Shown here: one piece after another, positions 3,148-47,165 of the stretch | Layout of the letters: each line of letters begins with the position of its first letter | How positions within the stretch are numbered: the stretch's first letter is position 1 | Source: Candidatus Latescibacterota bacterium | GTDB taxonomy: Bacteria; Latescibacterota; UBA2968; UBA8231 | Assembly (NCBI GenBank): GCA_965217585.1 | Contig: OZ244561.1 | Coordinates: 5,312,001-5,376,000, forward strand | DNA length: 64,000 nucleotides | Direction: 5' to 3' | Notes under the pieces: model-generated | Databases searched by the model: none | What the model was told of the DNA's origin: nothing | What the model saw: only the letters and a program-made list of their open reading frames with translations | Translations under genes and position numbers: made by a program

Positions 3148-3265
3148 GAACCCACCTCCTTAGGATGAGTTAGATGAAATAGGAAAAGTGCCTCGTGCCT
3201 GCAAATTCTTATATAGGATACGGTGAATAAACCGCAATCTCAAGCAAAAAGTGAGTAGGGTTCCG

Positions 3266-5206: not shown

Positions 5207-5295
5207 GGGCTAGTTGGCATGGTGTAGAGGATGCTTTGCAATTCGCTGCGGATAGGCTACTAACTTCTCCGCTAGATGCCAAACGCCGGGCGCGG

Positions 5296-13882: not shown

Positions 13883-13939
13883 GGGAGGATTGGGCGTTGG
13901 GCGTATTGCGGCGGGCGGACCTTGCATTACAATATAAGT

Positions 13940-23699: not shown

Positions 23700-23788
23700 G
23701 GATCCCTCCTATTGGACTGTGCGCAAAAGGACGGAGTGCCCAAGGCAAGATTCTCGCTTGTTCCACAGGTGTAATCAGCGCCTGCCAT

Positions 23789-28880: not shown

Positions 28881-30785
28881 TTAATAGGCGACCTGTAGTG
28901 GTTTTACGGCCGCGACCGTTTGGTGGTCGGCCTCGACGGAGACGCGGTATAGGTAGAGTCCCGGCGGCACCAGCCGTCCCGACGCATCGCGACCATCCCA
29001 CACCCGCTCATACGCACCAACCCCATCCAACCCCTCATACACCTGACGAACCCGACGTCCCGACAAGTCCCACACCGCCACCACCACCCAGGACGGACCG
29101 GTCAACTCTACCAAGCGATACCCCAATCCTACTACATCGTTATACTCGTCCCCGTTGGGCGTCAAGACCACCGGTCCTACCCCTATCTGCAACACGTCCT
29201 GATGTTCCGCCCGGGTGGCCACCCACACCCGATTGTCCTCATAGGCGGGCGTAGCATCGCCTTCCTGCACGCTCTGGGGCACCTCCAACGGCAGGGCACT
29301 GTCCCACACCCGCATTGAAAAAGTCGAACCATAGCGCAACACCTCCGCCTCGAAAACCACCTCGACCAAAGCACCCGAATCCTGAGCTGTCAGCCGCGGG
29401 ATACTCACGACCACCCGGTGTAGCTCTGCCACCTCCACTGCATAATCTACCGGCTCATCGCCAATGTGCACTTGGGTTACGGGTCCCAGTCGCGCCGTGG
29501 TGGCCACCTCTAAACGGTCAAAGCCGCCATTAGCAACTCCAATGGTGGGTCGCAGCACGTAGGTAAACTGCTGCGGCTGTCCTACCGTTGCCTCGACCGG
29601 CCAAACCTCGCCGATCAACTGCGTAGCCACCGGTAGGGAAGCGCGCACTTCGAGAAAGTCCACTTGTCCGCCGTCGTCGTCTTGAGGCAGAAAGTCGACC
29701 CTGAGTTGGAGGTAGCGTCGTGGACTCCGCGACACGATGGGGGTGCCACTGCTGTCGGCAAAGGCGTAGGGGGACGACCAGAACGTCCAGTTGGCTTGAT
29801 CGTAGCCGGTGCCGGCTTTTTCGCCTATGGCCAAGTCGGCGTATTCGGAACGGCTGACGGGTATTTTTTCGTCGCCTCGTCCGGTGAAACGCCAGAACAG
29901 GTTGGGATCGTCGTCTTGTCCGGATCGGGTTTGGATGAGGATGCGGGCTTTGGGGTCTTGGTGGCCTGCCCAGCGCAGGTCGCCCCAGGCCATCGGTTGG
30001 CCAAAATCGAGAATGTTCGAGATGTACGTGGATTGTTCGACAAAGCCCTTGGCGTAGATTTCTATCTCGTGGACATCCCAGTTCTCGTTGTGCTCGCCGA
30101 TAGTGACTTGGACAAAACCTGCTTTATCGTACGGTGGGATGGGGATGTCGAGGATTTGCTCTCGGTTGTCCCGCACCTCAATGATCGAAGGCACGTAGGG
30201 ATGGGGGTGCTGGTACACAGCTTGGCGGGGCTGCTCTTCGTTGAGGTGGATGCGGATGGACCGTACTGTTTTACTCGGGTCAGTCAACCCGGATATAACC
30301 CGGATCCGGTCGATGAGATGGAGGGTACCTAGTTTGATATTGGCTGTGCCCGGGGTGCCGAAATCGTCGACGCATCTAAGGAAGTAATTTCTTTCCTCGA
30401 ATTCGGCGCACAGGTACCGGTCCGCCACCCAGAAAGTGCTGGTGTCCCCATCCCATACCTGCCCGTTCGTTTGCTTTCGAATATAGCTTCCCCCCCCTTC
30501 CTCAATTCCGGGGGCTATATTAAAGGTAGGATCTCGTTTTAGAGCTCGAATGGCCGCGGCTTCTATATCCAGATCAACCGTCTCTCCGCCTAGGGAAGGA
30601 TTGAGATCGGCCCAGCTTAGCTGGATAAATTCCACCTCTTCGCTGTCTACTTCTGGAGGTGGATCCAGCGCTTCGCCACCAAAGCGGAAGATGACCAGCC
30701 CAGAGGCCTCGTCTGCCAAAAAACCAACCCAAAAACAGAAAAGCCAGATCAGGGTACAAAAGAATGGAGCCGTCCTCATTGACAT
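28881..30785 (-). CDS. Secreted discoidin-like FlgD-Ig protein, variable subfamily copy 1
   Basis: Close paralogue of the three genes at 40782-46747; WDGDTSTFW, Cys-bounded loop, LTPNGD, WDGRD..GRLVPPGLY. Confidence 0.85.
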   Translation of the reverse strand: MSMRTAPFFCTLIWLFCFWVGFLADEASGLVIFRFGGEALDPPPEVDSEEVEFIQLSWADLNPSLGGETVDLDIEAAAIRALKRDPTFNIAPGIEEGGGSYIRKQTNGQVWDGDTSTFWVADRYLCAEFEERNYFLRCVDDFGTPGTANIKLGTLHLIDRIRVISGLTDPSKTVRSIRIHLNEEQPRQAVYQHPHPYVPSIIEVRDNREQILDIPIPPYDKAGFVQVTIGEHNENWDVHEIEIYAKGFVEQSTYISNILDFGQPMAWGDLRWAGHQDPKARILIQTRSGQDDDPNLFWRFTGRGDEKIPVSRSEYADLAIGEKAGTGYDQANWTFWSSPYAFADSSGTPIVSRSPRRYLQLRVDFLPQDDDGGQVDFLEVRASLPVATQLIGEVWPVEATVGQPQQFTYVLRPTIGVANGGFDRLEVATTARLGPVTQVHIGDEPVDYAVEVAELHRVVVSIPRLTAQDSGALVEVVFEAEVLRYGSTFSMRVWDSALPLEVPQSVQEGDATPAYEDNRVWVATRAEHQDVLQIGVGPVVLTPNGDEYNDVVGLGYRLVELTGPSWVVVAVWDLSGRRVRQVYEGLDGVGAYERVWDGRDASGRLVPPGLYLYRVSVEADHQTVAAVKPLQVAY

Positions 30786-30823
30786 GTACCTCGCAAATCT
30801 CGGACGCCGGTCTTACGCATCCC

Positions 30824-33394
30824 TCAGTACGCTACATGGACCACCCGCTGCACAAAAGTATTATCGGCCGAGCCAGAATCCACATCCACCTTTACCCTCG
30901 CCAAGTATATCCCCGGAGGAACTGGCTCGCCCAAATGATCCTTGCCATCCCACCGAAAGACATAATTGCCGCGAGGATCTGGACGGCGTTCCTCTATCCG
31001 GTTGGTCTCAAACCCACTCAGGTCGTAAACGGTCAGAGTCACCGGTCTCTCAGCACCCACCCGCGCTACGCCGAAGCTGAATACCAGCTCATCGTTGACG
31101 CCGTCCCCATTGGGCGTGAATACTCGCGACCCCAGTCTGAAATCCCTAATAATTTCGGTCCCCCTGAGAGCTAGGACGGTGACGGTCTGGCTGCTGACCA
31201 GTTCCGTGGGATCGCCCTCGTCAACTCGCTGCCAGAATCCAGGTACGGCGGAATTCTGTACCAGGGCTCCAAAGGAGGCACTATTGCCGAATATGGTGGC
31301 GCGAAACCGGATCTGAACTAGTTCCGTTCCGCCGCCAATTTTCTCGTCTAAGCGGAACCTGATGGAGCCGGCTGGCGCATCGGTCAGAGTCAGATCCGCC
31401 GGTGCGTAGTTAGTGGTTTGTCCGCTCTCGAAATTATCCTTGCTTCCCGTCCGCACTTCGAGCAACTCCATTGCAGTACCCGCCGTGGCTTCTAAGGTGA
31501 TCTCGTCGAAACCTTGATCTGTCGCAGTGAAATCGGGCCGGATGAAGTAAGAGAATTCCTCAGGGGTGCCCACGGTCTCAATTCGGGTGGGCCATACTTC
31601 TCCCACCAGCCGATCAGCAACTGGATCTGAGGTGTTGATGGCAATGGAGCGGAGGGTGGCACCCGCGTCCGACCTATCCGTGAGCAATATGAGCCGAATT
31701 TCCATAAACTGTCTGGGACTGGGGGATTTGATCGCTTCCCCGGACCGAGTGTACGGCACACTCCACGTGCTCCAGTCGTCGCCCGGTTTGAATGTGCTGG
31801 TGATATCGCCCTTTTTGGACTTAGGCAGCTTTTTGTAGCGCTTCTCGGTGACGACCTTGCCCTTGGAATCGTGGAAGATCTTCTCTTCTATCAACTCATT
31901 GCCCGTCCGGGTCTGCAGCTGGACCTGGGTCCCAGTCGGCGTATCCGCCTCCCACTCGACGGAAATCAGGTTCTTAGGTTCGTTAAATTGAATTAGATCC
32001 GAGGTCAGCGATACTTCCGCCACAAAGCCCTCCCCGTAGAGCATCACCTCCGTAAAAGCTATGTAGCTGAGCGAACTCAGTGGGTTCTGGAACGGAGAGC
32101 GAATAAAGCGGATCTTGATGGGCTCAATCTGGATTTCGCGAAATCGCAAGCCGCGGGAAGAGGTATGGCCAAAAGCGTCCCTAGCGGTACTTTGACCCAC
32201 CCGAGTCCACTTGATGCTGCCGTCGGGTGCCCGGGTACCATCGGAGGTATCGACGTAAAGTTCGTTGATCGCTGAGGCTCCGTCGGTGAGAAAGTGCATG
32301 GTGTCGACCCAGAATAGAGCCCCCAGATCCTCGAAGTAATTATAGTCGCGATAGCCGAAAATGGACCCATTGGCACCCGTGCTGTAGTTGCCGTCGGTAA
32401 CTGCTGCCCCAATGTCCTTAACGCCACCATTGTGCTCGATTGTCACCTGTCCTCCCCGCTCCACCACGCCGATGTTGATATTGTCTCCCTCCGTCACGAC
32501 CTCTACCTCGGCGATCTTGGGAATTTCCCTCCGGTAGTAGCGGATCGGGCCCCGGCGTTCGGGATTAATGCTGTCGTATTCCTCTTGTGAAATTAGAGTT
32601 TCTCGGCCGGACCGCTCTTTCCGGTAGAATTCGATAGCGCCTTGCTGGTCTGTCGGCAGATTCTCGTACTCCTGTTCGGTCAATTCCTCAGCCTTGGTCG
32701 AATCACTATTAATGGCAATTATTAGAATGCGCTCGAGCGGATCGCCCCTGAAGAGCAGATCCGATCCTTCGGTCGGACGGGGTTCAAATTCGAATACGCG
32801 CTGTGTCTTGTTGGGTTTATCGGTCCTGCCGATCTCCCAGAAGTTGGGGACGTTGGTCTTGGGCTCGTCGAGATAATAGCCCGAAACCGAGCGCGGTGGG
32901 GGTTGCCGCCAGCCCAGCACCTTGAACTGCAGGAAGGGATCTCCCTCGCCTTCTTGGGCAAAGCGCACGACTATTTTCTTGACGACCACTATGCGGCCAA
33001 GATTCACCTCTGCCCACCAGTCTTCCAGAGGGCTTTCGGGATTGGGGCCCCACATGGTCTGCAGGTCGCCATCTATCAGGTTGTTCACCGTATTGGTGCC
33101 GGAGCCTGCTATCACCCCTCCCTCGCCGGTAGTGGAAAATTGCGTCGCGTTCTGAGCTGCGTTGACCTCTTTCCGTATAAAGGAGGGCTGCACTGTATTG
33201 TCGGCCGTGGAAATATCCAGAACACTCGAAGCCCCTTTCCACGCCTGCCAGTGAGCTGCTCGGTCAATAAGGACTTGATTGCCGCGAATAGCGTGGCCCT
33301 GTTGCGACCAGGCTTGGAGGGGAAAGATCAGCAGTGTACCGATCCACACCAAGCTGGAGATGCCCCGCCGATAAGAAATCGAGTCAACTACCAT
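30824..33394 (-). CDS. Secreted protein with two discoidin-like domains and TPNGD/FlgD-Ig C-terminal domain
   Basis: Signal peptide; LIDGDLQTMW..VNLGR and VTDGNYST..DLG repeats; YGEGFV, SPSPRQF, GEVWP, FTPNGDGVND, ends VAY. Confidence 0.8.
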   Translation of the reverse strand: MVVDSISYRRGISSLVWIGTLLIFPLQAWSQQGHAIRGNQVLIDRAAHWQAWKGASSVLDISTADNTVQPSFIRKEVNAAQNATQFSTTGEGGVIAGSGTNTVNNLIDGDLQTMWGPNPESPLEDWWAEVNLGRIVVVKKIVVRFAQEGEGDPFLQFKVLGWRQPPPRSVSGYYLDEPKTNVPNFWEIGRTDKPNKTQRVFEFEPRPTEGSDLLFRGDPLERILIIAINSDSTKAEELTEQEYENLPTDQQGAIEFYRKERSGRETLISQEEYDSINPERRGPIRYYRREIPKIAEVEVVTEGDNINIGVVERGGQVTIEHNGGVKDIGAAVTDGNYSTGANGSIFGYRDYNYFEDLGALFWVDTMHFLTDGASAINELYVDTSDGTRAPDGSIKWTRVGQSTARDAFGHTSSRGLRFREIQIEPIKIRFIRSPFQNPLSSLSYIAFTEVMLYGEGFVAEVSLTSDLIQFNEPKNLISVEWEADTPTGTQVQLQTRTGNELIEEKIFHDSKGKVVTEKRYKKLPKSKKGDITSTFKPGDDWSTWSVPYTRSGEAIKSPSPRQFMEIRLILLTDRSDAGATLRSIAINTSDPVADRLVGEVWPTRIETVGTPEEFSYFIRPDFTATDQGFDEITLEATAGTAMELLEVRTGSKDNFESGQTTNYAPADLTLTDAPAGSIRFRLDEKIGGGTELVQIRFRATIFGNSASFGALVQNSAVPGFWQRVDEGDPTELVSSQTVTVLALRGTEIIRDFRLGSRVFTPNGDGVNDELVFSFGVARVGAERPVTLTVYDLSGFETNRIEERRPDPRGNYVFRWDGKDHLGEPVPPGIYLARVKVDVDSGSADNTFVQRVVHVAY

Positions 33395-33453
33395 GATGGC
33401 TCCTCCAGAATGTGAATTTGTCGCGTGGTTAAACAGCTTTTAGATAGATAAAC

Positions 33454-33487
33454 ACAAAGAGGGGATATCGAAATATCCCCTCTTTGT
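33454..33487 (-). terminator. Hairpin terminator with UUCG loop
   Basis: Perfect 15-bp stem ACAAAGAGGGGATAT / ATATCCCCTCTTTGT with TTCG loop on the minus strand, 16 bp after the stop of 33504..34433. Confidence 0.85.
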
Positions 33488-33503
33488 ATTTGAAAGACTG
33501 GAA

Positions 33504-34433
33504 TTATTCTTCCAGCAGATAGTGGGACTTGATTCTGCCCCACGAGTCGTTTTCTACAGCGGTGGGGAACAGCTCTTCATCGACCTCCAGCAACTCCATG
33601 TCGCCCATGAGATTGCCATTGCGCCAGACGTTGTGAACAGCCGGAAAATCGTAGGAGCCCTCGTAGCTGGAGTCCAAGTCGTAGTCTTTAGACAGGGAGC
33701 CGACGTGGATGATATTGCCTACTTCCAAGTCGAAGATTGTGCTTTGCTCAGGACCATCCCAACTCCAAGTTTCCCACGGGGTCATCATGATCTCGTAGGA
33801 ATAAGTACCCGGACCACCAGTCTCGCCGGTGCGGGACCAGCCCACTTGGGCGTACTCGGGGAAGGGGATCTCGCGGCCAGTGGTCTCCCAGTCGGTCGCC
33901 TCGATGTACTTGAAGGCCCAGTACCCATCGATGGGCGGCACGTGGATCTGCCACAGTTGACCCGTGACGAAAAACAAATCCCGGCGCTCGTCCTCGGACA
34001 AATCGTTCCAATCGTTGTTAAACATATCGCCACCGCTGTGATCGGCGTCGAGCACGAAGTGCCAGTCGTCATCCCAGTTGAAGACGGTGGGGTCGTCGCG
34101 GTCGTTGTTGAGATTATCGTCAACCACAAAGGCAAAGGAGAAAACCCGGTTCATTTCCTCGTTCCAGGCCCATGCGCTCCTAGCGTTGAAATCCGACAGC
34201 TCGCCGCTGTCAGTCCCGCGCACGGTCTCTTGGATATGGCCTCCTTCCACCGAGATCTCGAAGATATCTGGATCTACCATGTCCCAATCGCTTAGATCGC
34301 CGTCGATGGCGGGCACGGCGTGAAGGGGGAACTGAAAGGCGAAGTAAACCTCGCCAGGCGGTTCGTGAGCCGAGCCGATACTAGCGCAGGCGACCACGAG
34401 CGCTAAAGCCAGAAAGCAACGAATCAGTTTCAT
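33504..34433 (-). CDS. Secreted CBM9/DOMON-like protein with C-terminal TAVENDSWGRIKS motif
   Basis: Signal peptide ending GSA-H, PAIDGDLSDW, LDADHSGG; RBS AGGAGGT; paralogue of 2221..3147. Confidence 0.75.
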   Translation of the reverse strand: MKLIRCFLALALVVACASIGSAHEPPGEVYFAFQFPLHAVPAIDGDLSDWDMVDPDIFEISVEGGHIQETVRGTDSGELSDFNARSAWAWNEEMNRVFSFAFVVDDNLNNDRDDPTVFNWDDDWHFVLDADHSGGDMFNNDWNDLSEDERRDLFFVTGQLWQIHVPPIDGYWAFKYIEATDWETTGREIPFPEYAQVGWSRTGETGGPGTYSYEIMMTPWETWSWDGPEQSTIFDLEVGNIIHVGSLSKDYDLDSSYEGSYDFPAVHNVWRNGNLMGDMELLEVDEELFPTAVENDSWGRIKSHYLLEE

Positions 34434-34622
34434 TACTTTAACCTCCTGTTAGGTATTGGATTGAAAAGCCGATTCATCTGTCTGCTCAATTCTGCATATA
34501 CAGTGCCGAGTTACCAGGCTATGAGACCTCCTTTCGCCTGACTGTTTAAACGTTCTTTATTCCTGCTACGGACACTTAGTTTGGTAATATACGAGCAAAA
34601 AGTCTAAGTACATAGAAAAATT

Positions 34623-36794
34623 TCAACCCTCTCCCTCCAACTGCTGTATTCGGCCCGCCGATGGATGATTGGGTGCCAACTCTACCCCCTTCTGCCAGTA
34701 CGCACGGGCCTGCTGACGTCGTTCCAAGCGCCACAAGGCCCGGCCTAGATTGAAGTAGGCCGGGGCAAAATCCGGGTGCAACGCGACCAGCTCTTCCCAA
34801 GTTTCCACGGCTTTTTCCAGATCTCCCAAGGAGGCGTACGCCACTCCGAGTTCGTTGTACGCCTCTTGGTACGCTGGCTTCAGAGCTATAGCCTGCTCCA
34901 AAAAGCGCACGACCTGCTCTAGCTGGCCCAATTGAGCATAGGTCCGCCCCATTTGGGTGTAGAGATAGCGTCCCACTTCTAGGCCGACCAATTCTTCGGG
35001 CGCTGGCGCAATTTCCAAGGCCCGGTGGTACGCCTGCAAGGCGCCCGCCCAATCTTTTTCGGCCCTAGCTTGGTGACCGCGCAAAACCCAGTGCAGTGCC
35101 TCAAAGTAGGAACGGGCCTCTATCCGCACCGAAGTTCCGTTCACAGAGAGCGTGTCTAGCCGGACGACAGGTCCCGTCTTTTCTACTTGGTCAAATCCCG
35201 CAATCGGCAAAAAGTACCAGTCCATTCGGTCGAAAACAGCCGCTTCCACCCGGCCTGGTGAAAAGACTTCCCGCCATTGGCCTGTCCCTAGGAGGGACTG
35301 GAAATCGGGTGGTATCTCCTCGTCGGAGCACACAGGATGCTGATAGTGGACGATCACGACTGGGGCACTAGCGCTGTCCTGGGACGTCGACTTTACCTTC
35401 TCCACCTTCGTCTCCAGGTACAGGGGCGGCAGATCGTCGCGCCGGGCCAGTAGCGCGTACGCCCGCAGCAACGCTTCGCTGCCGTAGCTCTGCAGGTAAT
35501 GGGTCTGCCGCACCTGCAAGCGCTCGGGTGTCAGCACCTGGATCTGGCCGCACTTTGAGGGCAATTGGATCAGGCGCTGGTACTGGGGAAGGTGGGTCTG
35601 GAGCCAAGCCTGAGCCTCTATGCGGGTGTCTTGGCCGCTGAGTAGAGATCTAGTGCGGAGCGAGGCGTACAGGGGCTCGGCCACCAAGGTCAGGGTGACC
35701 AAGCCACCCACCAGAGGGTACTTACATCCCATCCCGACCAAACGTCCGATGAGCAAGGCTAGCAAGGGCGCAAGGGGTAGGGCATAGCGCATAAAAGTGG
35801 AGCCAGCAAGAGCGAGAACTGCGGCCAAGGGAATGATGCCAGCCAGCAAGACAAGTTCCTGCCATTGCCTCTGGCGAATGCCCCAGAGCAGGGACAGGGC
35901 TACGGCCACGGCAGCCACCGCGCCCAGACCGTGGCGCAAAGTATAGCGCAGGTGGTAGAGCCAAGCCTGTTCCTCTGCACCCGGCTCCGCCAGCAGATGG
36001 GTCCGTCCCATATCGGCGAAATGGTCCCAAAACTGCCCGGCATCGAGCCAGACAAAGGGTGTGGCTAAGGCAAAACTCAACGCAGCCCCACTGCCGACCC
36101 AGATGATGCGCCTGCGTGGCCAAGGTCTATTCAGCAAAATCGCCGTGGCTACTGGTATCGCCACTAGAACCGCCGGGTACTTGGTCGCCCCGGCCAAGCC
36201 AGTGAAAATACCCGCCGCCAGAAAATCCCACACGTGCCCCTCCTGTCGGGCCCGCACGGCCCACAACAGGGCCATTACCGCCCAGAAAACAGCCGGCGTA
36301 TCCACGATGGCCAAATGGGCAAAACGCACGGCCAGCGGCATGGTCGCCAAGATCAGGGCGGCCAAGAGTCCTTCTCTGACGCCGTAGAGGCGTCGGCCTA
36401 GACAGGCGACAGCCCCTACTGTGGCAACGGACAGCAGGGTGTTGACCCCACGCACTAGCGCTAGCAAATCGCGGCCGTCCACCAGCAAGTGATAGGCGAC
36501 AAACTGCTCCACTGATTCGGCGCTTGTCACCAGATAGTAGAGCAGGTATAAAAATGAACTAAGGTAGAAGTGAAAGGTTGGGTAGTTAAAGTAGTGGGGA
36601 TTGAGATCGCCGCTCCAGAAACCCAGCGGCAGGACTATGAAGGCGATCTCGTCGAAGTGGGTCCAGGCTGGTATGGGCACTGGCCAGCGCAGCGCCAGCG
36701 TTAGCACCAAGATAGCGCCCGTACCCCATCTGAAGGGAATGCGCCCTGTGTTCTTCTCTGACATTTGGCGCCTTTCCCGCCTAGGCTGGCTCAA
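34623..36794 (-). CDS. GT39/ArnT-like glycosyltransferase with C-terminal TPRs
   Basis: HFDE, DLNPHYFNYP, GLAGATKYP, multiple TMs, TPRs at the C-terminus. Start may be 36764. Confidence 0.8.
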   Translation of the reverse strand: MSQPRRERRQMSEKNTGRIPFRWGTGAILVLTLALRWPVPIPAWTHFDEIAFIVLPLGFWSGDLNPHYFNYPTFHFYLSSFLYLLYYLVTSAESVEQFVAYHLLVDGRDLLALVRGVNTLLSVATVGAVACLGRRLYGVREGLLAALILATMPLAVRFAHLAIVDTPAVFWAVMALLWAVRARQEGHVWDFLAAGIFTGLAGATKYPAVLVAIPVATAILLNRPWPRRRIIWVGSGAALSFALATPFVWLDAGQFWDHFADMGRTHLLAEPGAEEQAWLYHLRYTLRHGLGAVAAVAVALSLLWGIRQRQWQELVLLAGIIPLAAVLALAGSTFMRYALPLAPLLALLIGRLVGMGCKYPLVGGLVTLTLVAEPLYASLRTRSLLSGQDTRIEAQAWLQTHLPQYQRLIQLPSKCGQIQVLTPERLQVRQTHYLQSYGSEALLRAYALLARRDDLPPLYLETKVEKVKSTSQDSASAPVVIVHYQHPVCSDEEIPPDFQSLLGTGQWREVFSPGRVEAAVFDRMDWYFLPIAGFDQVEKTGPVVRLDTLSVNGTSVRIEARSYFEALHWVLRGHQARAEKDWAGALQAYHRALEIAPAPEELVGLEVGRYLYTQMGRTYAQLGQLEQVVRFLEQAIALKPAYQEAYNELGVAYASLGDLEKAVETWEELVALHPDFAPAYFNLGRALWRLERRQQARAYWQKGVELAPNHPSAGRIQQLEGEG

Positions 36795-36821
36795 TTACCG
36801 CCCGTCGGCGAGAATTCCGCG

Positions 36822-38570: not shown

Positions 38571-38702
38571 TTTCCTCCAATGCCTCTAGGGACACATGTT
38601 AAACATTGGCCCAGAGGCGAAATTTACAACCTACAACACCCCAATAAAGCCAACTTTTTCGCTACTGTCGAGAAACAGGCACTCGCTGCCTGCGTCTTGT
38701 CT

Positions 38703-40724
38703 ATGTTCGCAAATAACCGCTATGTCGTTGCTCTTTTCCTCTTGGCCCTGATTCTGCGTCTGGCCTACCTAGTAGAAATCCGCGATACACTCTACTTTCA
38801 CACCTTAATCCTCGACGCTGAGGAGTACGATTATCTAGCCCAGGCTCTGCTCGAAGGCGACTGGTGGCTCACCACTCATCGCACCTATGTCCACGGTCCG
38901 CTCTATCCCGCGCTATTGACCCTGCTTAAACTGGGCGGTGCCGGGCTTGTGGCCACGCGCCTGTTCCAAGCCGTTCTCGGGGCTTTCTCCTGCGTCCTAC
39001 TCTACGCTATTGCTCGTCGCTTTTTCCCCACTCCTACCCCTTTGCTAACCGGTCTGATAGCAGTTGGGTACTGGCCCTTTATCCTCTACAACGGCGAACT
39101 ACTGGCCACCACCCTGACCATCTTTATCGAACTGCTTTTGGTGATTCAACTGGTGCGCTGCGCCGACCGGCCTAGCTATTGGTCGGTCGGCGGTGCCGGG
39201 GCGCTACTGGGCCTGCTGATTGAGACGCGCAGCAATACCCTGTTACTGGTGCCGGTGGCTCTCTGGTGGCTCTACTATCGGACTCGAACCCGACTACTGG
39301 TACCTTTCTTGTTGGGGCTCTGCGCCGTTCTGACTCCCTTTCTGGTCCACAACAGCCTCGTCCAAGGCACGCCGCTCCCGTTCCAAGGTGCTTGGAGCTT
39401 TTACATGGGCAACAATCCGGTGGCCGACGGCACTCCATATGCACGCCAGGGGATAGACTGGCAACGTCTCGAATTGCTGCCCTACCAGGCAGATATGGCC
39501 GCTTCGCCAGCCGCCAGAGGCCGGTTCTATCTGATCGAGGGATTCGGCTTCATTGTCGATCAACCGCTTTCCTACCTCCACTTGCTCTACCGCAAATTCA
39601 GGCTGTTCTGGCACGCCTTTGAAATCCCAGTGAGCGTTGATATCCACTTTTACGAGGTGCATTCCTACTTAAGCCGCTTGGCTGTTTTCGGTTTTGGCAT
39701 TGTCGCTCCCTTAGCTCTAGTCGGGTTGGTGGGGAACTGGCATCGATGGCGCCAATACGGCTTGCTCTACGGTTTCGGACTATCCTACCTGGTCTCGGGC
39801 CTGCTCTTTACGGTATGCGCTCGCTATCGGCTCCCCGCGGTGCCTTTTCTGATGCTTTTCGCCGCCGAAGCTATCCGTCAAGGTGCCCTAAGTTTAAAGG
39901 AGCACCAGTGGCGACGCAGTGCTGCCTTGGCGCTGGTGCTGGGTGCTGCTTTTGCACTGGGACACACTGGAATTGATCCCGCACAGGTGGATCACCTGCG
40001 TTCTGCTTGGCTCCAGGGGCAGGTCCACATGCGCAACCAAGCATATGACCGCGCCGAGGCGGCCTATTTGCAGGCGCTCCAGGACGATGCCGACGCAGAT
40101 GTCTACAGCAGTCTGGGTGCAGTCTACGAAGGGCAGAGGCGGCCTCGTGAAGCTGAAACGGCGTATCGCCGAGCCCTTGTTCTGGCCTCTGATCACACCC
40201 GGGCTCGGCTCAATCTGAGCAATCTCCTGCGCGGGGAACAGCGCTTCGATGAAGCCAAGGCCATCCTCCTTGAGGCACTCGCCAACGACCCCCGTCCCTC
40301 CATTCAATACGAGGGCCACTACTATCTGGGCTATCTCCATCTAGACCAGCGGGACTATCTGCAGGCGTATGGCTCTTTCACCACGGCCCTAGAAGCGGAG
40401 CAACGAGCCGAAGGTTTCTACGCCTTGGCTAATGCCTGCCACCATCTAGGGCACCAGGACGAGCAGATCCGGCACTTGCGGAAGACTGTAGATATAGATC
40501 CAGAATTTGCCGCTGCTCATCGGAACCTTGGAGCCTTGTACCTGCAGCGAGGTGAATACGCGCCTGCCGAAGAGGCGCTGCGCCGAGCCCTGCACCTTGA
40601 ACCCGATGTGGCCATTGCCCACTACAATATAGGTGTGCTCTATGTGCACACCGGGCGACGAGAATTGGCCCAGACCGCCTTCGAAACCGCCGAGCAGCTA
40701 CGCCGGGCAGAGACGTCCCCTTGA
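38703..40724 (+). CDS. GT39/PMT-like glycosyltransferase with C-terminal TPRs
   Basis: LDAEEY, HGPLYP, FYMGNNP.ADG, ARYRLP, then multiple TPRs. Start trimmed to ATG 38703. Confidence 0.8.
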   Translation: MFANNRYVVALFLLALILRLAYLVEIRDTLYFHTLILDAEEYDYLAQALLEGDWWLTTHRTYVHGPLYPALLTLLKLGGAGLVATRLFQAVLGAFSCVLLYAIARRFFPTPTPLLTGLIAVGYWPFILYNGELLATTLTIFIELLLVIQLVRCADRPSYWSVGGAGALLGLLIETRSNTLLLVPVALWWLYYRTRTRLLVPFLLGLCAVLTPFLVHNSLVQGTPLPFQGAWSFYMGNNPVADGTPYARQGIDWQRLELLPYQADMAASPAARGRFYLIEGFGFIVDQPLSYLHLLYRKFRLFWHAFEIPVSVDIHFYEVHSYLSRLAVFGFGIVAPLALVGLVGNWHRWRQYGLLYGFGLSYLVSGLLFTVCARYRLPAVPFLMLFAAEAIRQGALSLKEHQWRRSAALALVLGAAFALGHTGIDPAQVDHLRSAWLQGQVHMRNQAYDRAEAAYLQALQDDADADVYSSLGAVYEGQRRPREAETAYRRALVLASDHTRARLNLSNLLRGEQRFDEAKAILLEALANDPRPSIQYEGHYYLGYLHLDQRDYLQAYGSFTTALEAEQRAEGFYALANACHHLGHQDEQIRHLRKTVDIDPEFAAAHRNLGALYLQRGEYAPAEEALRRALHLEPDVAIAHYNIGVLYVHTGRRELAQTAFETAEQLRRAETSP

Positions 40725-40781
40725 AAGGGGCTTTAAGATCCCGGCCCAGCGGTACATGACGGCAACGGCCACCGGAAATAT

Positions 40782-42665
40782 TTAATAGACGACATGTAGT
40801 GGTTTTATCGCCGTGACCGTTTTGTGGTCGGCATCGACGGAGACGCGGTATAGATAGAGTCCCGGCGGCACCAGCCGCCCCAACTCGTCCCGACCATCCC
40901 ACACCCGCTCATACGCACCAATCCCATCCAACCCCTCATACACCTGACGCACCAGCCGCCCCGACAAGTCCCACACTGCCACCACCACCCAGGACGGACC
41001 GGTCAACTCCACTAAGCTATACCCCAATCCCACCACATCGTTGCGCTCATCCCCGTTGGGCGTCAAGACCACCGATCCTACCCCTATCTGCAACACATCC
41101 TGATGTTCCGCCCGGGTGGCCACCCACACCCGATTGTCCTCATAGGCGGGCGTAGCATCGCCCTCCTGCACGCTCTGGGGCACCTCCAACGGTAAGGCAC
41201 TGTCCCACACCCGCATTGAAAAAGTCGATCCATAGCGCAGCACTTCTGCCTCGAAAACCACCTCCACCAAAGCACCCGAATCCTGAGCTGCCAGTCGCGG
41301 GATACTCACGACCATCCGGTGTAGCTCGGCCGCTTCCACCGCATAGGCCACCGGCTCATCGCCGATGCGCACTTGGGTTACAGGTCCCAGCCGTGCCGTT
41401 GTGATTACCTCTAACCGGTCAAAGCCCTCGTTACTAGTGGTAAGGGTTGGTCGCAGTACGTAAGTGAACTGCTGCGGCTGTCCTACGGCGACTTCGACAG
41501 GCCAGACCTCGCCGACCAACTGCGTAGCCACTGGTGGGGAAGCGCGCACTTCGAGGAAGTCCACTTGGCCGCCGTCGTCGTCTTGGGGGAGGAAGTCGAC
41601 TTTGAGTTGGAGATAGCGTCGTGGGCTCAGTGACACGACGGGGGTGCCGTTGCTATCGGCAAAGGCGTAGGGGGCCGACCAGAACGTCCAGTTGGCTTGA
41701 TCGTAGCCGATACCGGCTTTTTCACCCACAGCTAACTTGGCGTAGTCGGTTCGGCTGACGGGTATTTTTTCGTTGCCTCGTCCGGTGAATCGCCAGAACA
41801 GGTCGGGATCGTCGTCTTGTCCGGATCGGGATTGGATGAGCACTTGGGCTTTGGGGTCTTGGCGTCCGGACCAGCGCAGGTCGCCCCAAGCCATCGGCTG
41901 ACCAAAATCGAGAACATTGGAGATATACGTCGCTTGTTCGACAAAGCCTTTGGCGTAGACTTCTATCTCGTTCACTTCCCAATCATCGCCGTGCTCGCCG
42001 ACGGTGACCTGCACGAATTCCACGTCCTCGTGCGCTGGAATGGGTACATCCAAGATCTGCTCTCGGTTGTCTCGCACCTCGACGATCCAAGGCGAAAACG
42101 GTTCGGGAGTAAGACTAAAAGAAATGCGCGCGGGCAGCGGCCCAATGTGGACGCGGAAGGTCCGCACAGTTCTGCTCGGGTCGGTCAACCCGGATATCAT
42201 CCGAATCCGATCAATGCGATAACGACTGCCCAAGAAAATATTGGCTGTACCTTGGCGACCGAAATCGTCGGTGCAGGATCCTCGGCTGCGGAATTGGGCA
42301 CACAGATATTTTTCTGCCAGCCAGAAGACACCCGTATCCCCATCCCATACCTCTCTATTTATATTGGGCCTTAAATGTGCCCCTCCTCTCTCTTCAACTC
42401 CAGGTGCGATGTTGAAGTTTGGATCGCGTTTCAGAGGCCAGATACTAGCGCTATCCAAACCCACCTCAGTAGCTTCCCCACCGCGGTCGGCCTCTATATC
42501 GGTCCAGCTTAGCTGGATAAATTCCACCTCTTCGTGGTCTACTTCGGGCGGCGGCGCTAGTGCTTCACCGCCGAAACGGTAGATGACCAACCCGGAAGCT
42601 TCTCCAGTCGCGAAGCCAATCCACAGGAAGAGAGCCCAGGTCAACAAACGGAATAGGTCGCTCAT
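40782..42665 (-). CDS. Secreted discoidin-like FlgD-Ig protein, variable subfamily copy 2
   Basis: Paralogue; C-terminal domain nearly identical to that of 28881..30785. Confidence 0.85.
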   Translation of the reverse strand: MSDLFRLLTWALFLWIGFATGEASGLVIYRFGGEALAPPPEVDHEEVEFIQLSWTDIEADRGGEATEVGLDSASIWPLKRDPNFNIAPGVEERGGAHLRPNINREVWDGDTGVFWLAEKYLCAQFRSRGSCTDDFGRQGTANIFLGSRYRIDRIRMISGLTDPSRTVRTFRVHIGPLPARISFSLTPEPFSPWIVEVRDNREQILDVPIPAHEDVEFVQVTVGEHGDDWEVNEIEVYAKGFVEQATYISNVLDFGQPMAWGDLRWSGRQDPKAQVLIQSRSGQDDDPDLFWRFTGRGNEKIPVSRTDYAKLAVGEKAGIGYDQANWTFWSAPYAFADSNGTPVVSLSPRRYLQLKVDFLPQDDDGGQVDFLEVRASPPVATQLVGEVWPVEVAVGQPQQFTYVLRPTLTTSNEGFDRLEVITTARLGPVTQVRIGDEPVAYAVEAAELHRMVVSIPRLAAQDSGALVEVVFEAEVLRYGSTFSMRVWDSALPLEVPQSVQEGDATPAYEDNRVWVATRAEHQDVLQIGVGSVVLTPNGDERNDVVGLGYSLVELTGPSWVVVAVWDLSGRLVRQVYEGLDGIGAYERVWDGRDELGRLVPPGLYLYRVSVDADHKTVTAIKPLHVVY

Positions 42666-43094
42666 AAGATGGGCCTAGGGAGATAGGGGGCCTTAGAAGA
42701 AACGATCCTACGATCACTACATCGCTACATGTCTTCTATATATATAGATACGAATATCAGCTCAGATTGCGAAAGTTGACTTTTCGCGGATGGTCAACGG
42801 CAAACGAAAAATTGTTCAATATACCACGTGCAGGAGTCCGGCTTGCTCGACCCTTTGGTGGTCGGCCTCGACAGAAACCCGGTATAAGTAGAGACCCGGC
42901 GGCACCAGCCGTCCCGACGCATCGCGACCATCCCATATCCGTTCATACGCACCCACGCCGTCCCGTCCCGCATACACCTGCCGCACCCGACGACCCAACA
43001 AATCCCACACCGCCACCGCCACCGACGCTGTCCCCGTCAGTTCCAATAAATCGTAGCCCAGCCTTACTGTGTCGTTGCGCTCATCCCCGTTGGG
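42498..43094. repeat. ~600-bp direct repeat, copy 1
   Basis: Spans the 5' end of copy 2, the intergenic region and the 3' end of copy 3; near-identical to 44535-45139. Confidence 0.85.
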
Positions 43095-44702
43095 GGTCAA
43101 AACCGCCGGCTTCCTGCTCATCTGCAATACCCCCTGATGCTCCGCCTTGGTGGCCACCCACACCCGATTGTCCTCATAGACGGGAGTAGCATCGCCCTCC
43201 TGCACGCTCTGGGGCACCTCCAACGGTAGGGCACTATTCCACACCCGCATCAAAAAAGTCGAGCCATAACGCAACACCTCTGCCTCGAAAACCACCTCGA
43301 CCAAAGCACCCGAATCCTGAGCCGTCAGCCGGGGGAAACTCACGACCACCCGGTGCGGCTCAGCCACCTCCACCGCATAAGACACTGACTCATCGCCAAT
43401 GCGTACTTGGGTTACAGGTCCTAGCCGCGCCGGGGTGGCGACCTCCAACCGGTCAAACCCGCCACTGTCCACCCCAAGGGTGGGTCGCAGCACATAGGTA
43501 AACTGCTGCGGCTGTCCTACGGCGACCTCTACCGGCCAGATCTCGCCGACCAACTGCGTCGCTACCGGTGGGGAAGCGCGCACTTCGAGAAAGTCCATCT
43601 GTCCACTGTCGTCGTCTTGGGGGAGAATGTCAACCTTGAGTTGGAGGTAGCGTCTTGGACTCAGCGACACGATGGGGGTGCCGTTGCTGTCGGCAAAGGC
43701 GTAGGGGGCCGACCAGAACGTCCAGTTAGCACGATCGTAGCCGATACCGGCTCTTTCGCCTCTAGCTAACTTGGCGTAGGTAGTTCGGCTGACGGGTATT
43801 TTTTCATCGCCTCGTCCGGTGAAGCGCCAGAACAGGTCGGGGTCGTCGTCTTGGCCGGATCGGGATTGGATGAGGATGCGGGCTTTGGGGTCTTGGCGTC
43901 CGGACCAGCGCAGGTCGCCCCAGGCCATCGGTTGGCCAAAATCGAGAATGTTCGAGATGTACGTCGCCTGTTCGACAAAGCCTTTGGCGTAGATTTCTAT
44001 CTCGTGGACTTCCCAGTCCTCGTTGTGCTCTCCGACAGTCACCTGCACGAATTCCACTTGCTCGTGCGGTGGGATAGGGATGTCGAGGATCTGCTCTCGA
44101 TTGTCGCGCACCTCGACGATCCAAGGGGCAAAGGGCGGAGGATTGAAAGTGATCCTCATTGTGGGAAGAAGCGGGGACATGAAAACGCGGAGGGAGCCCA
44201 CAATTTTGCCTGGGTCGTCCAACCCGGATTTCACCCGGATCCGGTCGATGAGGTAGCGACCGCCTAAAAAAATATTAGCCGTGCCCGGGGTGCCGAAATC
44301 GTCAATACAAATGAGATTATAGGCCTCGAATTCGGCGCACAGATATCTGTCTGCCAACCAGATCGTACTCTCGTCCCCATCCCAGACCTGTCCATTGACG
44401 TTGGGTCTGACGTGGCTTCCCCCCTTTTCCTCAATCCCGGGGGCTATATTAAAAGTAGGATCTCGTTTTAGAGCCCGAATGGCGGTGGCGTCTATATCCA
44501 GTTCGACCGTCTCGCCGCCTAGGGAAGGATCGAGATCGGTCCAGCTTAGCTGGATAAATTCCACCCCTTCGTGGTCTACTTCGGGCGGCGGCGCTAGCGC
44601 TTCACCGCCGAAACGGTAGATGACCAACCCGGAAGCTTCTCCAGTCGCGAAGCCAATCCACAGGAAGAGAGCCCAGGTCAACGAACGGAATAGGTCGCTC
44701 AT
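42816..44702 (-). CDS. Secreted discoidin-like FlgD-Ig protein, variable subfamily copy 3
   Basis: Start set at MSDLFRS by alignment with copy 2. Confidence 0.85.
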   Translation of the reverse strand: MSDLFRSLTWALFLWIGFATGEASGLVIYRFGGEALAPPPEVDHEGVEFIQLSWTDLDPSLGGETVELDIDATAIRALKRDPTFNIAPGIEEKGGSHVRPNVNGQVWDGDESTIWLADRYLCAEFEAYNLICIDDFGTPGTANIFLGGRYLIDRIRVKSGLDDPGKIVGSLRVFMSPLLPTMRITFNPPPFAPWIVEVRDNREQILDIPIPPHEQVEFVQVTVGEHNEDWEVHEIEIYAKGFVEQATYISNILDFGQPMAWGDLRWSGRQDPKARILIQSRSGQDDDPDLFWRFTGRGDEKIPVSRTTYAKLARGERAGIGYDRANWTFWSAPYAFADSNGTPIVSLSPRRYLQLKVDILPQDDDSGQMDFLEVRASPPVATQLVGEIWPVEVAVGQPQQFTYVLRPTLGVDSGGFDRLEVATPARLGPVTQVRIGDESVSYAVEVAEPHRVVVSFPRLTAQDSGALVEVVFEAEVLRYGSTFLMRVWNSALPLEVPQSVQEGDATPVYEDNRVWVATKAEHQGVLQMSRKPAVLTPNGDERNDTVRLGYDLLELTGTASVAVAVWDLLGRRVRQVYAGRDGVGAYERIWDGRDASGRLVPPGLYLYRVSVEADHQRVEQAGLLHVVY

Positions 44703-45139
44703 AAGATGAGCATGGGGGATAGGGGGCCTTAGAAGAAACGATCCTACGATCACTACATCGCTACATGTCTTCTATCATATAGATACGAATATCAGCTCAG
44801 ATTGCGAAAGTTTGCGAAAGTTGACTTTTCGCGGATGGTCAACGGCAAACGAAAAATTGTTCAATATGCCACGTGCAGGAGTCCGGCTTGCTCGACCCTT
44901 TGGTGGTCGGCCTCGACAGAAACCCGGTATAAGTAGAGACCCGGCGGCACCAGCCGTCCCGACGCATCGCGACCATCCCATATCCGTTCATACGCACCCA
45001 CGCCGTCCCGTCCCGCATACACCTGCCGCACCCGACGACCCAACAAATCCCACACCGCCACCGCCACCGACGCTGTCCCCGTCAGTTCCAATAAATCGTA
45101 GCCCAGCCTTACTGTGTCGTTGCGTTCATCCCCATTGGG
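44535..45139. repeat. ~600-bp direct repeat, copy 2
   Basis: Near-identical to 42498-43094; differs by a few SNPs, the TA-run and a duplicated TTGCGAAAGT. Confidence 0.85.
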
Positions 45140-46747
45140 CGTGAAAACCGCCGGTGCCACCCGCACTTGCAACACCTCCTGTTCTCGGGCTGCTGTGGCC
45201 ACCCACACCCGATTGCCTTCATAGGCCGGACTGGCATCGCCCTCCTGCACGCTCTGGGGCACCTCCAACGGCTGGGCACTGTCCCATACCTGCGCGGCAA
45301 AGGTCGATCCATAGCGCAATACTTGGGCTTGGAAAACCACCTCCACCAAGGCTCCTGAATCCTCGACCGTCAGTCGCGGAAAACTCACTACCATCCGGTG
45401 TGGTTCGGACACCTCCACCGCATAGGACACTGGCTCATCGCCGATGCGCACCGCAGCGACCCCCTCGACAATCGACGAGGTCGCTATCGCCAACCGGTCA
45501 AAGCCCTCGTCGTTGGTGCCAAGGGTTGGTCGCACCGCGTAGGTAAACTGCTGCGGCTGTCCTACCGTTGCCTCCACCGGCCAGACCTCGCCGACCAACT
45601 GCGTGGCCACCGGTGGGGAAGCGCGCACCTCGAGAAAGTCCACCTGTCCACCGTCGTCGTCTTGGGTCAGAAAGTCGACTTTGAGTTGGAGATAGCGTCG
45701 TGGACTCCGCGACACGATGGGGGTGCCACTGCGGTCGGCAAAGACATAGGGGGCCGACCAGAACGTCCAGTTGGCTTGATCGTAGCCGATACCGGCTTTT
45801 TCGCCTATAGCTAGCTTGGCGTAGTCGGTTCGGCTGACAGGTATTTTTTCGTCGCCGCGTCCGGTGAAGCGCCAGAACAGATCGGGGTCGTCGTCTTGTC
45901 CGGATCGGGTTTGGATGAGGGTGCGGGCTTTGGGGTCTTGGCGTCCGGACCAGCGCAGGTCGCCCCAGGCCATCGGCTGACCAAAATCGAGGATGTTCGA
46001 GATGTAGCTGGCCTTTTTGACTAGCCCCTTGGCGTAGACTTCTATCTCGTTCACTTCCCAGTCCTCTCTGTGCTCGCTGGCGGCTACCTGCACAAAGGTC
46101 GTTCCCTCTTGTGGCGGGATGGAGATGTCGAGGGTCTGCTCTCGGTTGTCTCGCACCTCGACGATCCAGGGCGAATACGGCGGGGGATGATCAATGAGAG
46201 ATCTTTTTTTCCACGGCAACTCCGGCGCGATGTAAATGCGGACCGTCCGCACTATTTTGCTCGGATCGGTCAGGCCGGATATAATCCGGATCCGGTCGAT
46301 AAGATAGGGACTGCCTAGGTTGATATTAGCCGTGCCCTGTCGGCCAAAATCGTCTACGCAGAAAAACCTGCTGAGTGCGCCGCACAGATAACTGGCCGCC
46401 ACCCAAGCCGTACTGACATCGCCATCCCACACTTCAACATTCACATTGGGTCTGACGTGCTCCCCTCCATTTGCTTCAATGCCGGGGGCTATATTGAAAT
46501 TTGGATCGCGTTCAAGAGGCCGGATAGCGGCGGTGTCTATATCCAAATCAATGGCTGCCCCGCCCAGGGGAGGATTGAAATCCGTCCAGTTTAGCTGGAT
46601 GAATTCCACGCCTTCATGGCCTGCTTCTGGAGGCGGGGCCAATGCTTCGCCGCCCAATCGGTAGATAACCAACCCGGAGGCCGGTCCGGCCGCGAAACTA
46701 GCCCACAAAGAGAGGCTCCAGATCGACAAACGGAATAAGGCAGTCAT
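44861..46747 (-). CDS. Secreted discoidin-like FlgD-Ig protein, variable subfamily copy 4
   Basis: Paralogue; C-terminal domain nearly identical to copy 3. Confidence 0.85.
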   Translation of the reverse strand: MTALFRLSIWSLSLWASFAAGPASGLVIYRLGGEALAPPPEAGHEGVEFIQLNWTDFNPPLGGAAIDLDIDTAAIRPLERDPNFNIAPGIEANGGEHVRPNVNVEVWDGDVSTAWVAASYLCGALSRFFCVDDFGRQGTANINLGSPYLIDRIRIISGLTDPSKIVRTVRIYIAPELPWKKRSLIDHPPPYSPWIVEVRDNREQTLDISIPPQEGTTFVQVAASEHREDWEVNEIEVYAKGLVKKASYISNILDFGQPMAWGDLRWSGRQDPKARTLIQTRSGQDDDPDLFWRFTGRGDEKIPVSRTDYAKLAIGEKAGIGYDQANWTFWSAPYVFADRSGTPIVSRSPRRYLQLKVDFLTQDDDGGQVDFLEVRASPPVATQLVGEVWPVEATVGQPQQFTYAVRPTLGTNDEGFDRLAIATSSIVEGVAAVRIGDEPVSYAVEVSEPHRMVVSFPRLTVEDSGALVEVVFQAQVLRYGSTFAAQVWDSAQPLEVPQSVQEGDASPAYEGNRVWVATAAREQEVLQVRVAPAVFTPNGDERNDTVRLGYDLLELTGTASVAVAVWDLLGRRVRQVYAGRDGVGAYERIWDGRDASGRLVPPGLYLYRVSVEADHQRVEQAGLLHVAY

Positions 46748-47077: not shown

Positions 47078-47165
47078 AGGTTAACAGACGTAGGCTAGTG
47101 ATTTTCTCGCACGTCTGTGGCATTGGCCTATCATCTTATTATCCCCGCACTTGTGGAGGATAGCT

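Follow-up and report, generated by a model that had tools for sequence, protein, structure and literature searches.

We analysed four paralogous genes, A to D, carried by a 64,000-nucleotide stretch of the genome of a Candidatus Latescibacterota bacterium (contig OZ244561.1, positions 5,312,001 to 5,376,000; hereafter the window), and our results make it likely that they form an old, functionally distinct paralogue set with conserved head types, in which the tails evolve in concert by gene conversion. A sequence-only reading of the window had described these genes as bearing antibody-like hypervariable loops on a constant scaffold. The four genes and both of their loops are there, with every quoted string reproduced at its coordinates; within each type the loops are frozen, and the system is not hypervariable.

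All four open reading frames (ORFs) lie on the minus strand, encode 627-634 amino acids (aa) and share an overall pairwise identity of 72-78% in the alignment. Gene A (28881-30785, 634 aa, domain order N-M-I-T) carries the head type 'xEFEERNYFLx', and stands apart from the tandem D-C-B, which is made up of D (44861-46747, 628 aa, 'GALSxFF'), C (42816-44702, 628 aa from the ATG at 44702, 'AEFEAYxLx') and the final gene B (40782-42665, 627 aa, 'AQFRxRGx'). The open frame of C extends to a GTG at 44753, and the ATG at 44702, used as in the orthologues, is most likely the true start. In B, the head (N domain) corresponds to residues 24-240 (41946-42596) and the tail to residues 241-627 (40785-41945), both on the minus strand like their equivalents in A (head 30045-30716, tail 28884-30044), C (43980-44633 and 42819-43979) and D (46025-46678 and 44864-46024).

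Head types and loops between species

Two loops of the head differ between the copies. Loop 1 lies between two Cys that are invariant in 56/56 homologues (Cys122 and Cys131 in B), and reads YLC-AEFEERNYFLR-C in A, YLC-AQFRSRGS-C in B, YLC-AEFEAYNLI-C in C and YLC-GALSRFF-C in D, each followed by xDDFG, which gives lengths of 11, 8, 9 and 7 residues. It is encoded on the minus strand at 42276-42299 in B (residues 123-130), with equivalents at 30375-30407 (A), 44310-44336 (C) and 46361-46381 (D). Loop 2 precedes the sequence WIVEVRDNREQ in B (residues 175-192, 42090-42143, minus strand), its equivalents are found at 30189-30242 (A), 44124-44177 (C) and 46169-46228 (D), and the four strings preceding EVRDNREQ also read back exactly as quoted in the sequence-only reading.

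The comparison between species rests on 33 full-length genes from the syntenic locus of nine genomes of the genus, a 517-aa partial gene being excluded. The length of loop 1 does not change within a type in any of the 33 genes. Within types, identity between species is 0.89 in loop 1 and 0.94 in loop 2, equal to that of the domain core (0.88-0.95 in the rest of the head), and the ratio of nonsynonymous to synonymous divergence (dN/dS) is 0.22 and 0.18, respectively. Between types, identity falls to 0 in loop 1 and 0.33 in loop 2, as against 0.65-0.75 in the rest of the head. The loops are also the most type-specific stretches of the head: 7 of the 13 columns of loop 1 are type-specific, as are 11 of the 20 of loop 2. 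The hypervariable, antibody-like character that had been proposed is therefore not borne out by the within-type values (identity 0.89/0.94, dN/dS ~0.2, length fixed in 33/33).

The same picture comes from databases. Matches of at least 600 aa with a head identity of 75% or more form four groups, which count 16, 11, 22 and 21 proteins, the window's own included, and each group keeps its own loop strings nearly unchanged. Among 1.84 billion representative proteins, the head type retrieves 105 representatives at E<=1e-3 and 16 at E<=1e-30; the strict pattern of a Cys-bounded loop fits 7 of the 105, with loops of 7-14 residues. On a deep evolutionary scale loop 1 has thus diversified, in the way that a loop which determines specificity should. 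A diversification driven by substrate, host or phage evasion, which the sequence-only reading had put forward, fits poorly with loops conserved across species and across 11-22 database clusters per type, and no diversifying machinery is found nearby. Indeed, the sole RVT_1 match of the genome lies at 4,944,356, ~370 kb from the window; there is no reverse transcriptase or template repeat near the locus, and in a search of the genome the loop-coding DNA matches only the paralogues themselves. Mutagenesis by a diversity-generating retroelement (DGR) was ruled out on these two grounds, the distant sole reverse transcriptase and the matches of the loop DNA to paralogues only.

Sequencing-run data, in the form of assembled contigs, contain the stretch or part of it in 21 of 22 listed rows from nine studies. 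Four runs (X1, X5, X6 and X16, from four studies) were compared; they consist of short unitigs from mixed strains, and show presence and some allelic differences, not allele frequencies. Each of the four contains close relatives of the three tandem genes. An alternative allele, represented by a contig in two samples, differs from the window at 23 of 259 positions over 42270-42528, and among the 22 of these 23 positions that are listed, none falls in the loop 1 codons (42276-42299). Contigs from an RNA library cover parts of B, C and D at ~94-96% identity, which is no proof of transcription. One of them joins 41424 to 43459, a homologous B/C offset, and could reflect either a true hybrid or a path taken in assembly; the other contig joints, with sides of 20-27 nt and non-homologous offsets, were set aside. 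Two RNA rows, with small shares, are labelled "sponge metagenome", from which no habitat was inferred.

Evidence for exchange of tail sequence among linked copies

Between the copies, the heads (residues 25-243) are 61-73% identical, and the tail segments 85-91% (residues 244-378), 73-91% (379-528) and 71-96% (529-627). The variation is concentrated in the N-terminal head as the sequence-only reading had it, the copies differing most in their ~240 N-terminal residues. Its claim of a highly conserved C-terminal ~60% holds insofar as this part is more alike than the head, but the conservation is uneven, at 71-96% by segment, and the most similar pair changes from one tail segment to the next, so that the tail is a mosaic.

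Synonymous divergence (dS) among the four genes of the window is ~1 or saturated in the head, 0.15-0.4 over codons 260-400, and near zero in three tracts (B/C codons 1-60, C/D codons 541-636 and A/B codons 461-540). Between species within a type, dS is 0.31 in the head and 0.46 in the tail; between types, it is 1.08 and 0.58, respectively. Tail dS between types is thus about that between orthologues, and the low tail divergence comes with low dS, which argues for recent exchange and not for constraint.

Phylogenetic trees agree with this. In the head tree each type forms one clade, with support of 98-100 in the Shimodaira-Hasegawa approximate likelihood-ratio test (SH-aLRT), and the three label changes required are the minimum. 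The trees of tail segments 250-400, 401-530 and 531-627 need 7, 11 and 12 label changes. In these tail trees, copies of different types pair within single genomes, C with D of G000 and A with B of G010, both at 99, while a clade at 96 unites A and B of G000 with D of G001 (three rows). Since such cross-type pairs are specific to species, exchange took place after speciation and was recurrent. Furthermore, 56 of 225 head columns are fixed in a type-specific manner as against 5 of 385 tail columns, although columns variable within types are equally common in both (75/225 and 123/385), and the signal of type identity stops at about residue 245, the border between the head and the M domain.

A run test on 665 variable sites with 10,000 permutations detects individual tracts. 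The longest C/D run comprises 77 sites over 255 nt and is reached in 0/10,000 permutations, the B/C run comprises 35 sites (0/10,000) and the A/B run 18 sites (1/10,000); for A/C, A/D and B/D the longest runs of 8-10 sites are not significant (606-1,003/10,000). Two junction blocks of ~590 nt, both on the minus strand and attributable to conversion or duplication, share 98% mean column identity over 600 columns. One (42490-43079) runs from the terminal 264 nt of C across the C-B spacer into the first ~58 codons of B, and the other (44527-45124) from the terminal 264 nt of D across the D-C spacer into the first ~58 codons of C. The 3' ends of C and D are identical at 263 of 264 nt. The C/D and B/C tracts represent the halves of a single event, and the blocks differ appreciably only by a 10-nt tandem insertion or duplication in the D-C spacer (44763-44772). 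In the C-B spacer, DNA run X5 carries a 10-nt insertion at the equivalent site, behind 42766.

A fifth paralogue, E, located ~0.8 Mb away (C1:6155936-6157783) and 65% identical, serves as a control from the same genome. Its head is 57-68% identical to those of A-D, similar to the identity of A-D heads among themselves (61-73%), and its tail is 63-69% (M), 57-69% (I) and 60-64% (T) identical to theirs. Between E and A-D, dS amounts to 0.85-1.77 across segments and to 1.15-1.77 in the tail segments, as compared with a tail dS of 0.05-1.05 at a tail identity of 71-96% among the linked copies. The divergence of E is uniform along the gene, which means that the head is not intrinsically faster; the tails of the linked copies look constant because they have been homogenised, and are hence younger. 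Uniform divergence along the gene was one of the outcomes that the sequence-only reading had named as speaking against it, and its constant scaffold turns out to be largely a product of gene conversion among linked copies.

As to mechanism, we consider it likely that the four head types, with both of their loops, predate the split of the species of the genus, and have been under purifying selection since speciation. The heads would most plausibly provide four fixed ligand specificities, probably for glycans. The linked copies repeatedly exchange tail sequence, by gene conversion or unequal crossing-over, with exchanges that stop at or near the head/tail border, so that tails evolve in concert while heads keep their identity. 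The head may be spared because converted heads are selected against, or because its nucleotide identity (~67-76%) is too low for recombination.

Domain folds, rival explanations and known systems

For B, an AlphaFold2 model based on 56 homologues reaches a mean predicted local distance difference test score (pLDDT) of 86.6 and a predicted template modelling score (pTM) of 0.71. It is all-beta and comprises four domains: the head (residues ~24-243), the M beta-sandwich (~244-378), the immunoglobulin (Ig)-like I domain (~379-528) and the FlgD_ig / CHU_C-like T domain (~529-627). The head consists of an F5/8-type-C / CBM32-like beta-sandwich preceded by an N-terminal extension of ~55 residues. 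Pfam gives no match at E<=1 for the heads of the four copies, which do not reach the gathering score of PF00754 or PF22633. A profile of 30 heads (A3), including distant paralogues from the same genome, contains 6 with weak PF00754 matches (best E 0.002). Against PDB sequences, the profile finds 7jnb, an F5/8 type C domain protein (E 1.5e-6), 7jfs (1.2e-5) and the CBM32 4lks (0.0015), in alignments that span the motifs DGD..T.W, ..LG, R.R and E.E.Y. Moreover, a separate model of the head (pLDDT 80.2, pTM 0.73) matches in Foldseek the galactose-binding module of a sialidase, 2bzd (E 1.7e-7), and the CBM32 chains 4lqr, 2xqx, 4zxe and 4a42, with template modelling (TM) scores of 0.56-0.72 normalised to the target and E-values of the matches ranging from 1.7e-7 to 1e-5. 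A fold search with the full-length model gave generic multi-Ig/Fn3 matches only, and was uninformative. The models thus support the variable part as a lectin-type (F5/8-type-C / CBM32-like) domain; the label 'discoidin-like' given by the sequence-only reading stands at the level of profile and fold, though not at the Pfam threshold. We infer that the heads bind sugars, with four different specificities.

In CBM32 domains, variable loops of variable length at one apex form the binding site (PMC5291390). From DSSP strings and profile alignments to CBM32 chains, loop 1 of our proteins lies between the "DGD..T.W" strand and the "..LG" strand and aligns to the position of one CBM32 apical loop, whereas loop 2 is a hairpin after the "FRVHIG" strand. 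Three strands, at residues ~135-144, 148-158 and 170-175, separate the two loops and, as strands run from end to end, would put them at opposite ends of the sandwich. This topology suggests, with moderate strength, that loop 1 belongs to the canonical binding apex, whereas loop 2 would lie at the other extremity, close to the termini and to the domain that follows; being long, loop 2 could fold back. In CBM32 chains, the counterpart of the loop that follows the second of these strands is the "PR" loop, which we take to bear a sugar-binding Arg. Differing loops on a lectin fold would be a plausible and sensible basis for different ligand specificities, by analogy with such domains. In the head model, pLDDT is below 50 at residues 99-104 and 106-114 (122-127 and 129-137 of the full-length protein).

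In the tail, the M domain finds no real match in a profile search against PDB sequences (best SdrD, E 0.34), and in the ESM Atlas it matches only unnamed or Latescibacterota-labelled clusters (scores 0.88-0.90) and no known family. Pfam reaches only the C-terminal ~95 residues of A-D, with FlgD_ig at 24-29 bits and CHU_C at 21-29 bits for a cut-off of 27 in both cases; FlgD_ig passes it in three of the four copies. The T domain also matches the C-terminal domain of PorU. A search for type IX secretion system (T9SS) machinery, covering PorU and SprA, found both in the genome, PorU with 627.5 bits to NF033707 (cut-off 420) and SprA with 483.5 bits to TIGR04189 (cut-off 200). The N-terminus is hydrophobic, ends in ..GEASG and in the model of B forms a helix (residues 2-19) followed by a low-confidence linker, so that it looks like a signal peptide. 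We infer from these features that A-D may be exported by the type IX system.

A number of observations weigh against the reading of conserved heads on homogenised, exported tails. CHU_C (PF13585) passes its cut-off of 27 bits in only two of the four copies (C 27.4 and D 28.6, with A at 22.7 and B at 21.1), and the T domain remains below the T9SS sorting-domain cut-offs, with 16.0-21.9 bits to TIGR04131 (cut-off 35) and, for the isolated tail of B, 16.7 bits to TIGR04183 (cut-off 23). The specificity of CBM32 domains is not readable from sequence (PMC5291390). The segment trees include 33 genes, were obtained by quick searches with SH-aLRT support only, and come from nine closely related genomes of one genus. 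The population data are contigs with differences listed in part, in which rare loop variants could be missed. Finally, dN/dS, which the sequence-only reading had proposed as a check, is low within types (0.18-0.22) but raised between them: 0.59 in loop 2, and 2.2 in loop 1, there on eight barely alignable codons, with synonymous sites near saturation (177 of 406 loop 2 pairs are saturated). These ratios do not establish positive selection, and an early burst is neither shown nor excluded.

Would the loops nevertheless be hypervariable ligand-binding sites under ongoing diversifying selection, on a scaffold kept constant by purifying selection? They are the most divergent stretches between copies (identity 0 and 0.33), their length ranges over 7-14 residues in the wider family, and the apical loops of this fold bind sugars (PMC5291390). 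However, their conservation within types across species and database clusters at dN/dS ~0.2, the low dS that accompanies low tail divergence and so indicates recent exchange, the distance of the sole reverse transcriptase (370 kb) together with loop DNA that matches only paralogues, and an alternative allele contig with no listed difference in the loop 1 codons make this very improbable. We give equally little credit to the idea that the loops are unconstrained surface, which drifted after duplication and has no role in specificity. The low confidence of the model at loop 1 (pLDDT <50) and the probable placement of loop 2 away from the canonical binding end would agree with it, but neutral drift does not account for loops as conserved within a type as the core (0.89-0.94 as against 0.88-0.95), without any change of length in 33 of 33 genes and with both Cys invariant in 56 of 56.

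Another scenario is domain shuffling, in which A-D would be recent tandem duplicates with heads imported from distant members, the tails being young and not converted. The family of ~160 members does display varied N-terminal parts on the same M-I-T tail (42 with this head, 118 with another), and a low tail dS is compatible with a recent common origin. Yet within the genome each head is most closely related to the other three and to that of E, with no separate donor; all four head types are already present at the syntenic locus in 9 of 12 genomes; and the tail exchanges differ by species and pair different types within single genomes. We therefore regard shuffling as improbable, if by a hair less so than the two preceding explanations. 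An extension of the preferred reading, concerted tails under conserved heads, would make the locus a modular surface display, with four lectin heads (five in some species) for different host or food glycans on a common stalk-and-anchor. Conversion would then keep the stalk-and-anchor identical because all heads dock to one partner for secretion or anchoring, for which the neighbouring ~925-aa proteins described below are possible candidates; it would thereby let the scaffold co-evolve with that partner, and the head/stalk boundary would be held by selection. This extension is conceivable but rather speculative; if true, it would amount to a division of labour like that among antibodies, reached through concerted evolution instead of hypermutation.

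CBM32-like lectin domains, T9SS-like cargo and segmental concerted evolution are already known kinds, which A-D join. The heads share the beta-sandwich fold of CBM32 and bacterial F5/8 type C domains, such as the module of the Micromonospora viridifaciens sialidase and the CBM32s of Clostridium perfringens, but differ from them by the ~55-residue N-terminal extension and by the lack of an attached glycoside hydrolase or other enzyme, and in A-D do not reach the Pfam F5_F8_type_C cut-off. The Cys-bounded loop 1 is found in A-D and their closer relatives, including E and a sixth copy, F, and not in distant paralogues of the genome. Like type B cargo of the type IX system (CHU_C / TIGR04131; SprB-type, Flavobacterium), A-D end in an Ig-like CHU_C/FlgD_ig domain of ~95 residues in a genome that has PorU and SprA above cut-offs, although their scores are below the sorting-domain cut-offs and the host is not a member of the Bacteroidota. 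Type B cargo genes adjoin PorP/SprF-like partners; the family of A-D is likewise co-located with a second expanded family of large proteins.

Segmental concerted evolution by gene conversion is known for tandem bacterial surface-protein genes and for duplicated housekeeping genes, and A-D share with such families mosaic tracts, segment trees that group copies by genome, and a synonymous divergence lower between linked than unlinked copies. In antigenic-variation systems, gene conversion creates surface variation, whereas at A-D it homogenises the tail and spares the specificity domain, with a border at about residue 245. As in DGR targets and immunoglobulin-like loops, the variation lies in loops of a ligand-binding beta-sandwich, but A-D have no adjacent reverse transcriptase or template repeat and almost no loop variation within types; moreover, the loops of A-D differ in length, which DGR mutagenesis is not known to produce. 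A variable head on a constant scaffold in neighbouring paralogues can thus stem from overwriting of the scaffold and not from fast heads, and comparison with an unlinked copy from the same genome tells the two apart. Among tandem genes of bacteria, the locus offers a clean case of segmental concerted evolution that respects a domain border. Within an unstudied and hugely expanded family of lectin-like exported proteins (~160 genes, ~5% of the 7.3-Mb genome of an uncultured bacterium), it also delimits four stable head types, and the four heads are candidates for glycan-array work on recognition in this lineage.

Neighbouring genes and the wider family

Speaking of four paralogues, the sequence-only reading was correct for the locus and understated the genome, which holds a fifth copy (65% identical), a sixth (48%) and ~160 family members. 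Query P0002 gives 178 matches in its own 7.32-Mb single-contig genome. Hidden Markov models (HMMs) of the four domains find 267 ORFs of at least 250 aa with at least one domain, 160 of which have the M domain and 102 the T domain only. In the 160 family members, which form 46 clusters and represent 5.1% of the genome, this head type is present in 42 and absent from 118, many different N-terminal parts being joined to the shared M-I-T tail. The sixth close copy, F (C1:6138686-6140578, plus strand), has the loop 1 'IEFRGTAGHQ', lies in a 788-codon open frame that contains three candidate ATG starts well within it, and adjoins ~925-aa family members at 6141904-6147555.

Among named homologues, the closest (79% identical) carry the label Gemmatimonadota, and more distant ones (52-55%) Candidatus Latescibacterota. 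Three to four tandem copies and one separate copy are present in 9 of 12 genomes of the genus. The three smallest genomes (G004, G005 and G009, 4.2-5.0 Mb) contain no match to B at E<=1e-150; they also yield the fewest first-look candidates (118-160, as against 189-304 in the others), and family size appears to scale with genome size within the genus. In two species, a fifth head type, with the loop 1 'SALSKLL', lies between C and B (L022 of G010, 3972-5855; L027 of G006, 2301-4181); the head tree joins it to type D as sister (SH-aLRT 94), and the extra gene means that copy number at the locus differs between species. A limited literature search, which included PMC12993501, found no description of the family.

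Within the span of the four genes (28881-46747), seven further genes at 30824-40724 are unrelated or only distantly related to them. Gene A shares an operon-like row, entirely on the minus strand, with two more members of its family and a pair of ~925-aa proteins. Directly upstream of A is a distant family member of 856 aa with the M-I-T tail (30824-33394) and a weak F5_F8_type_C match at residues 98-160, and directly downstream another of 734 aa (26635-28839), also with the M-I-T tail, which scores 38 bits for CHU_C and 36 bits for FlgD_ig. The two ~925-aa proteins (20922-23699 and 23789-26575, together 20922-26575) have no Pfam or NCBIfam match, and belong to a second expanded family that has 99 matches in the genome at E<=1e-10 and is co-located with the lectin-like family. 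In the interval that separates A from B, two membrane glycosyltransferases with PMT_2 and tetratricopeptide repeat (TPR) domains (34623-36794, minus strand; 38580-40724, plus strand) flank a SurA-like double peptidyl-prolyl isomerase (36822-38570, minus strand). A third PMT_2 (GT-C type) glycosyltransferase with C-terminal TPR is found in the window at 12068-14104.

On the opposite strand, directly upstream of D, an ORF of 465 aa (47151-48548, plus strand) has weak Pfam matches only (CTI, E 7e-4; Cu2_monoox_C, E 2.5e-3) and no NCBIfam match. The window contains another local family expansion, six paralogous proteins of ~650 aa with DUF6785 and DUF6784 (E down to 1e-136), encoded at 3266-5206, 10061-12064, 15573-17603, 17616-19571, 48677-50626 and 50669-52705, among which two pairs are in tandem. 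At the left end of the window, a protein with a C-terminal FlgD_ig domain (37.6 bits) is encoded at 2-2164 on the minus strand and runs off the end.

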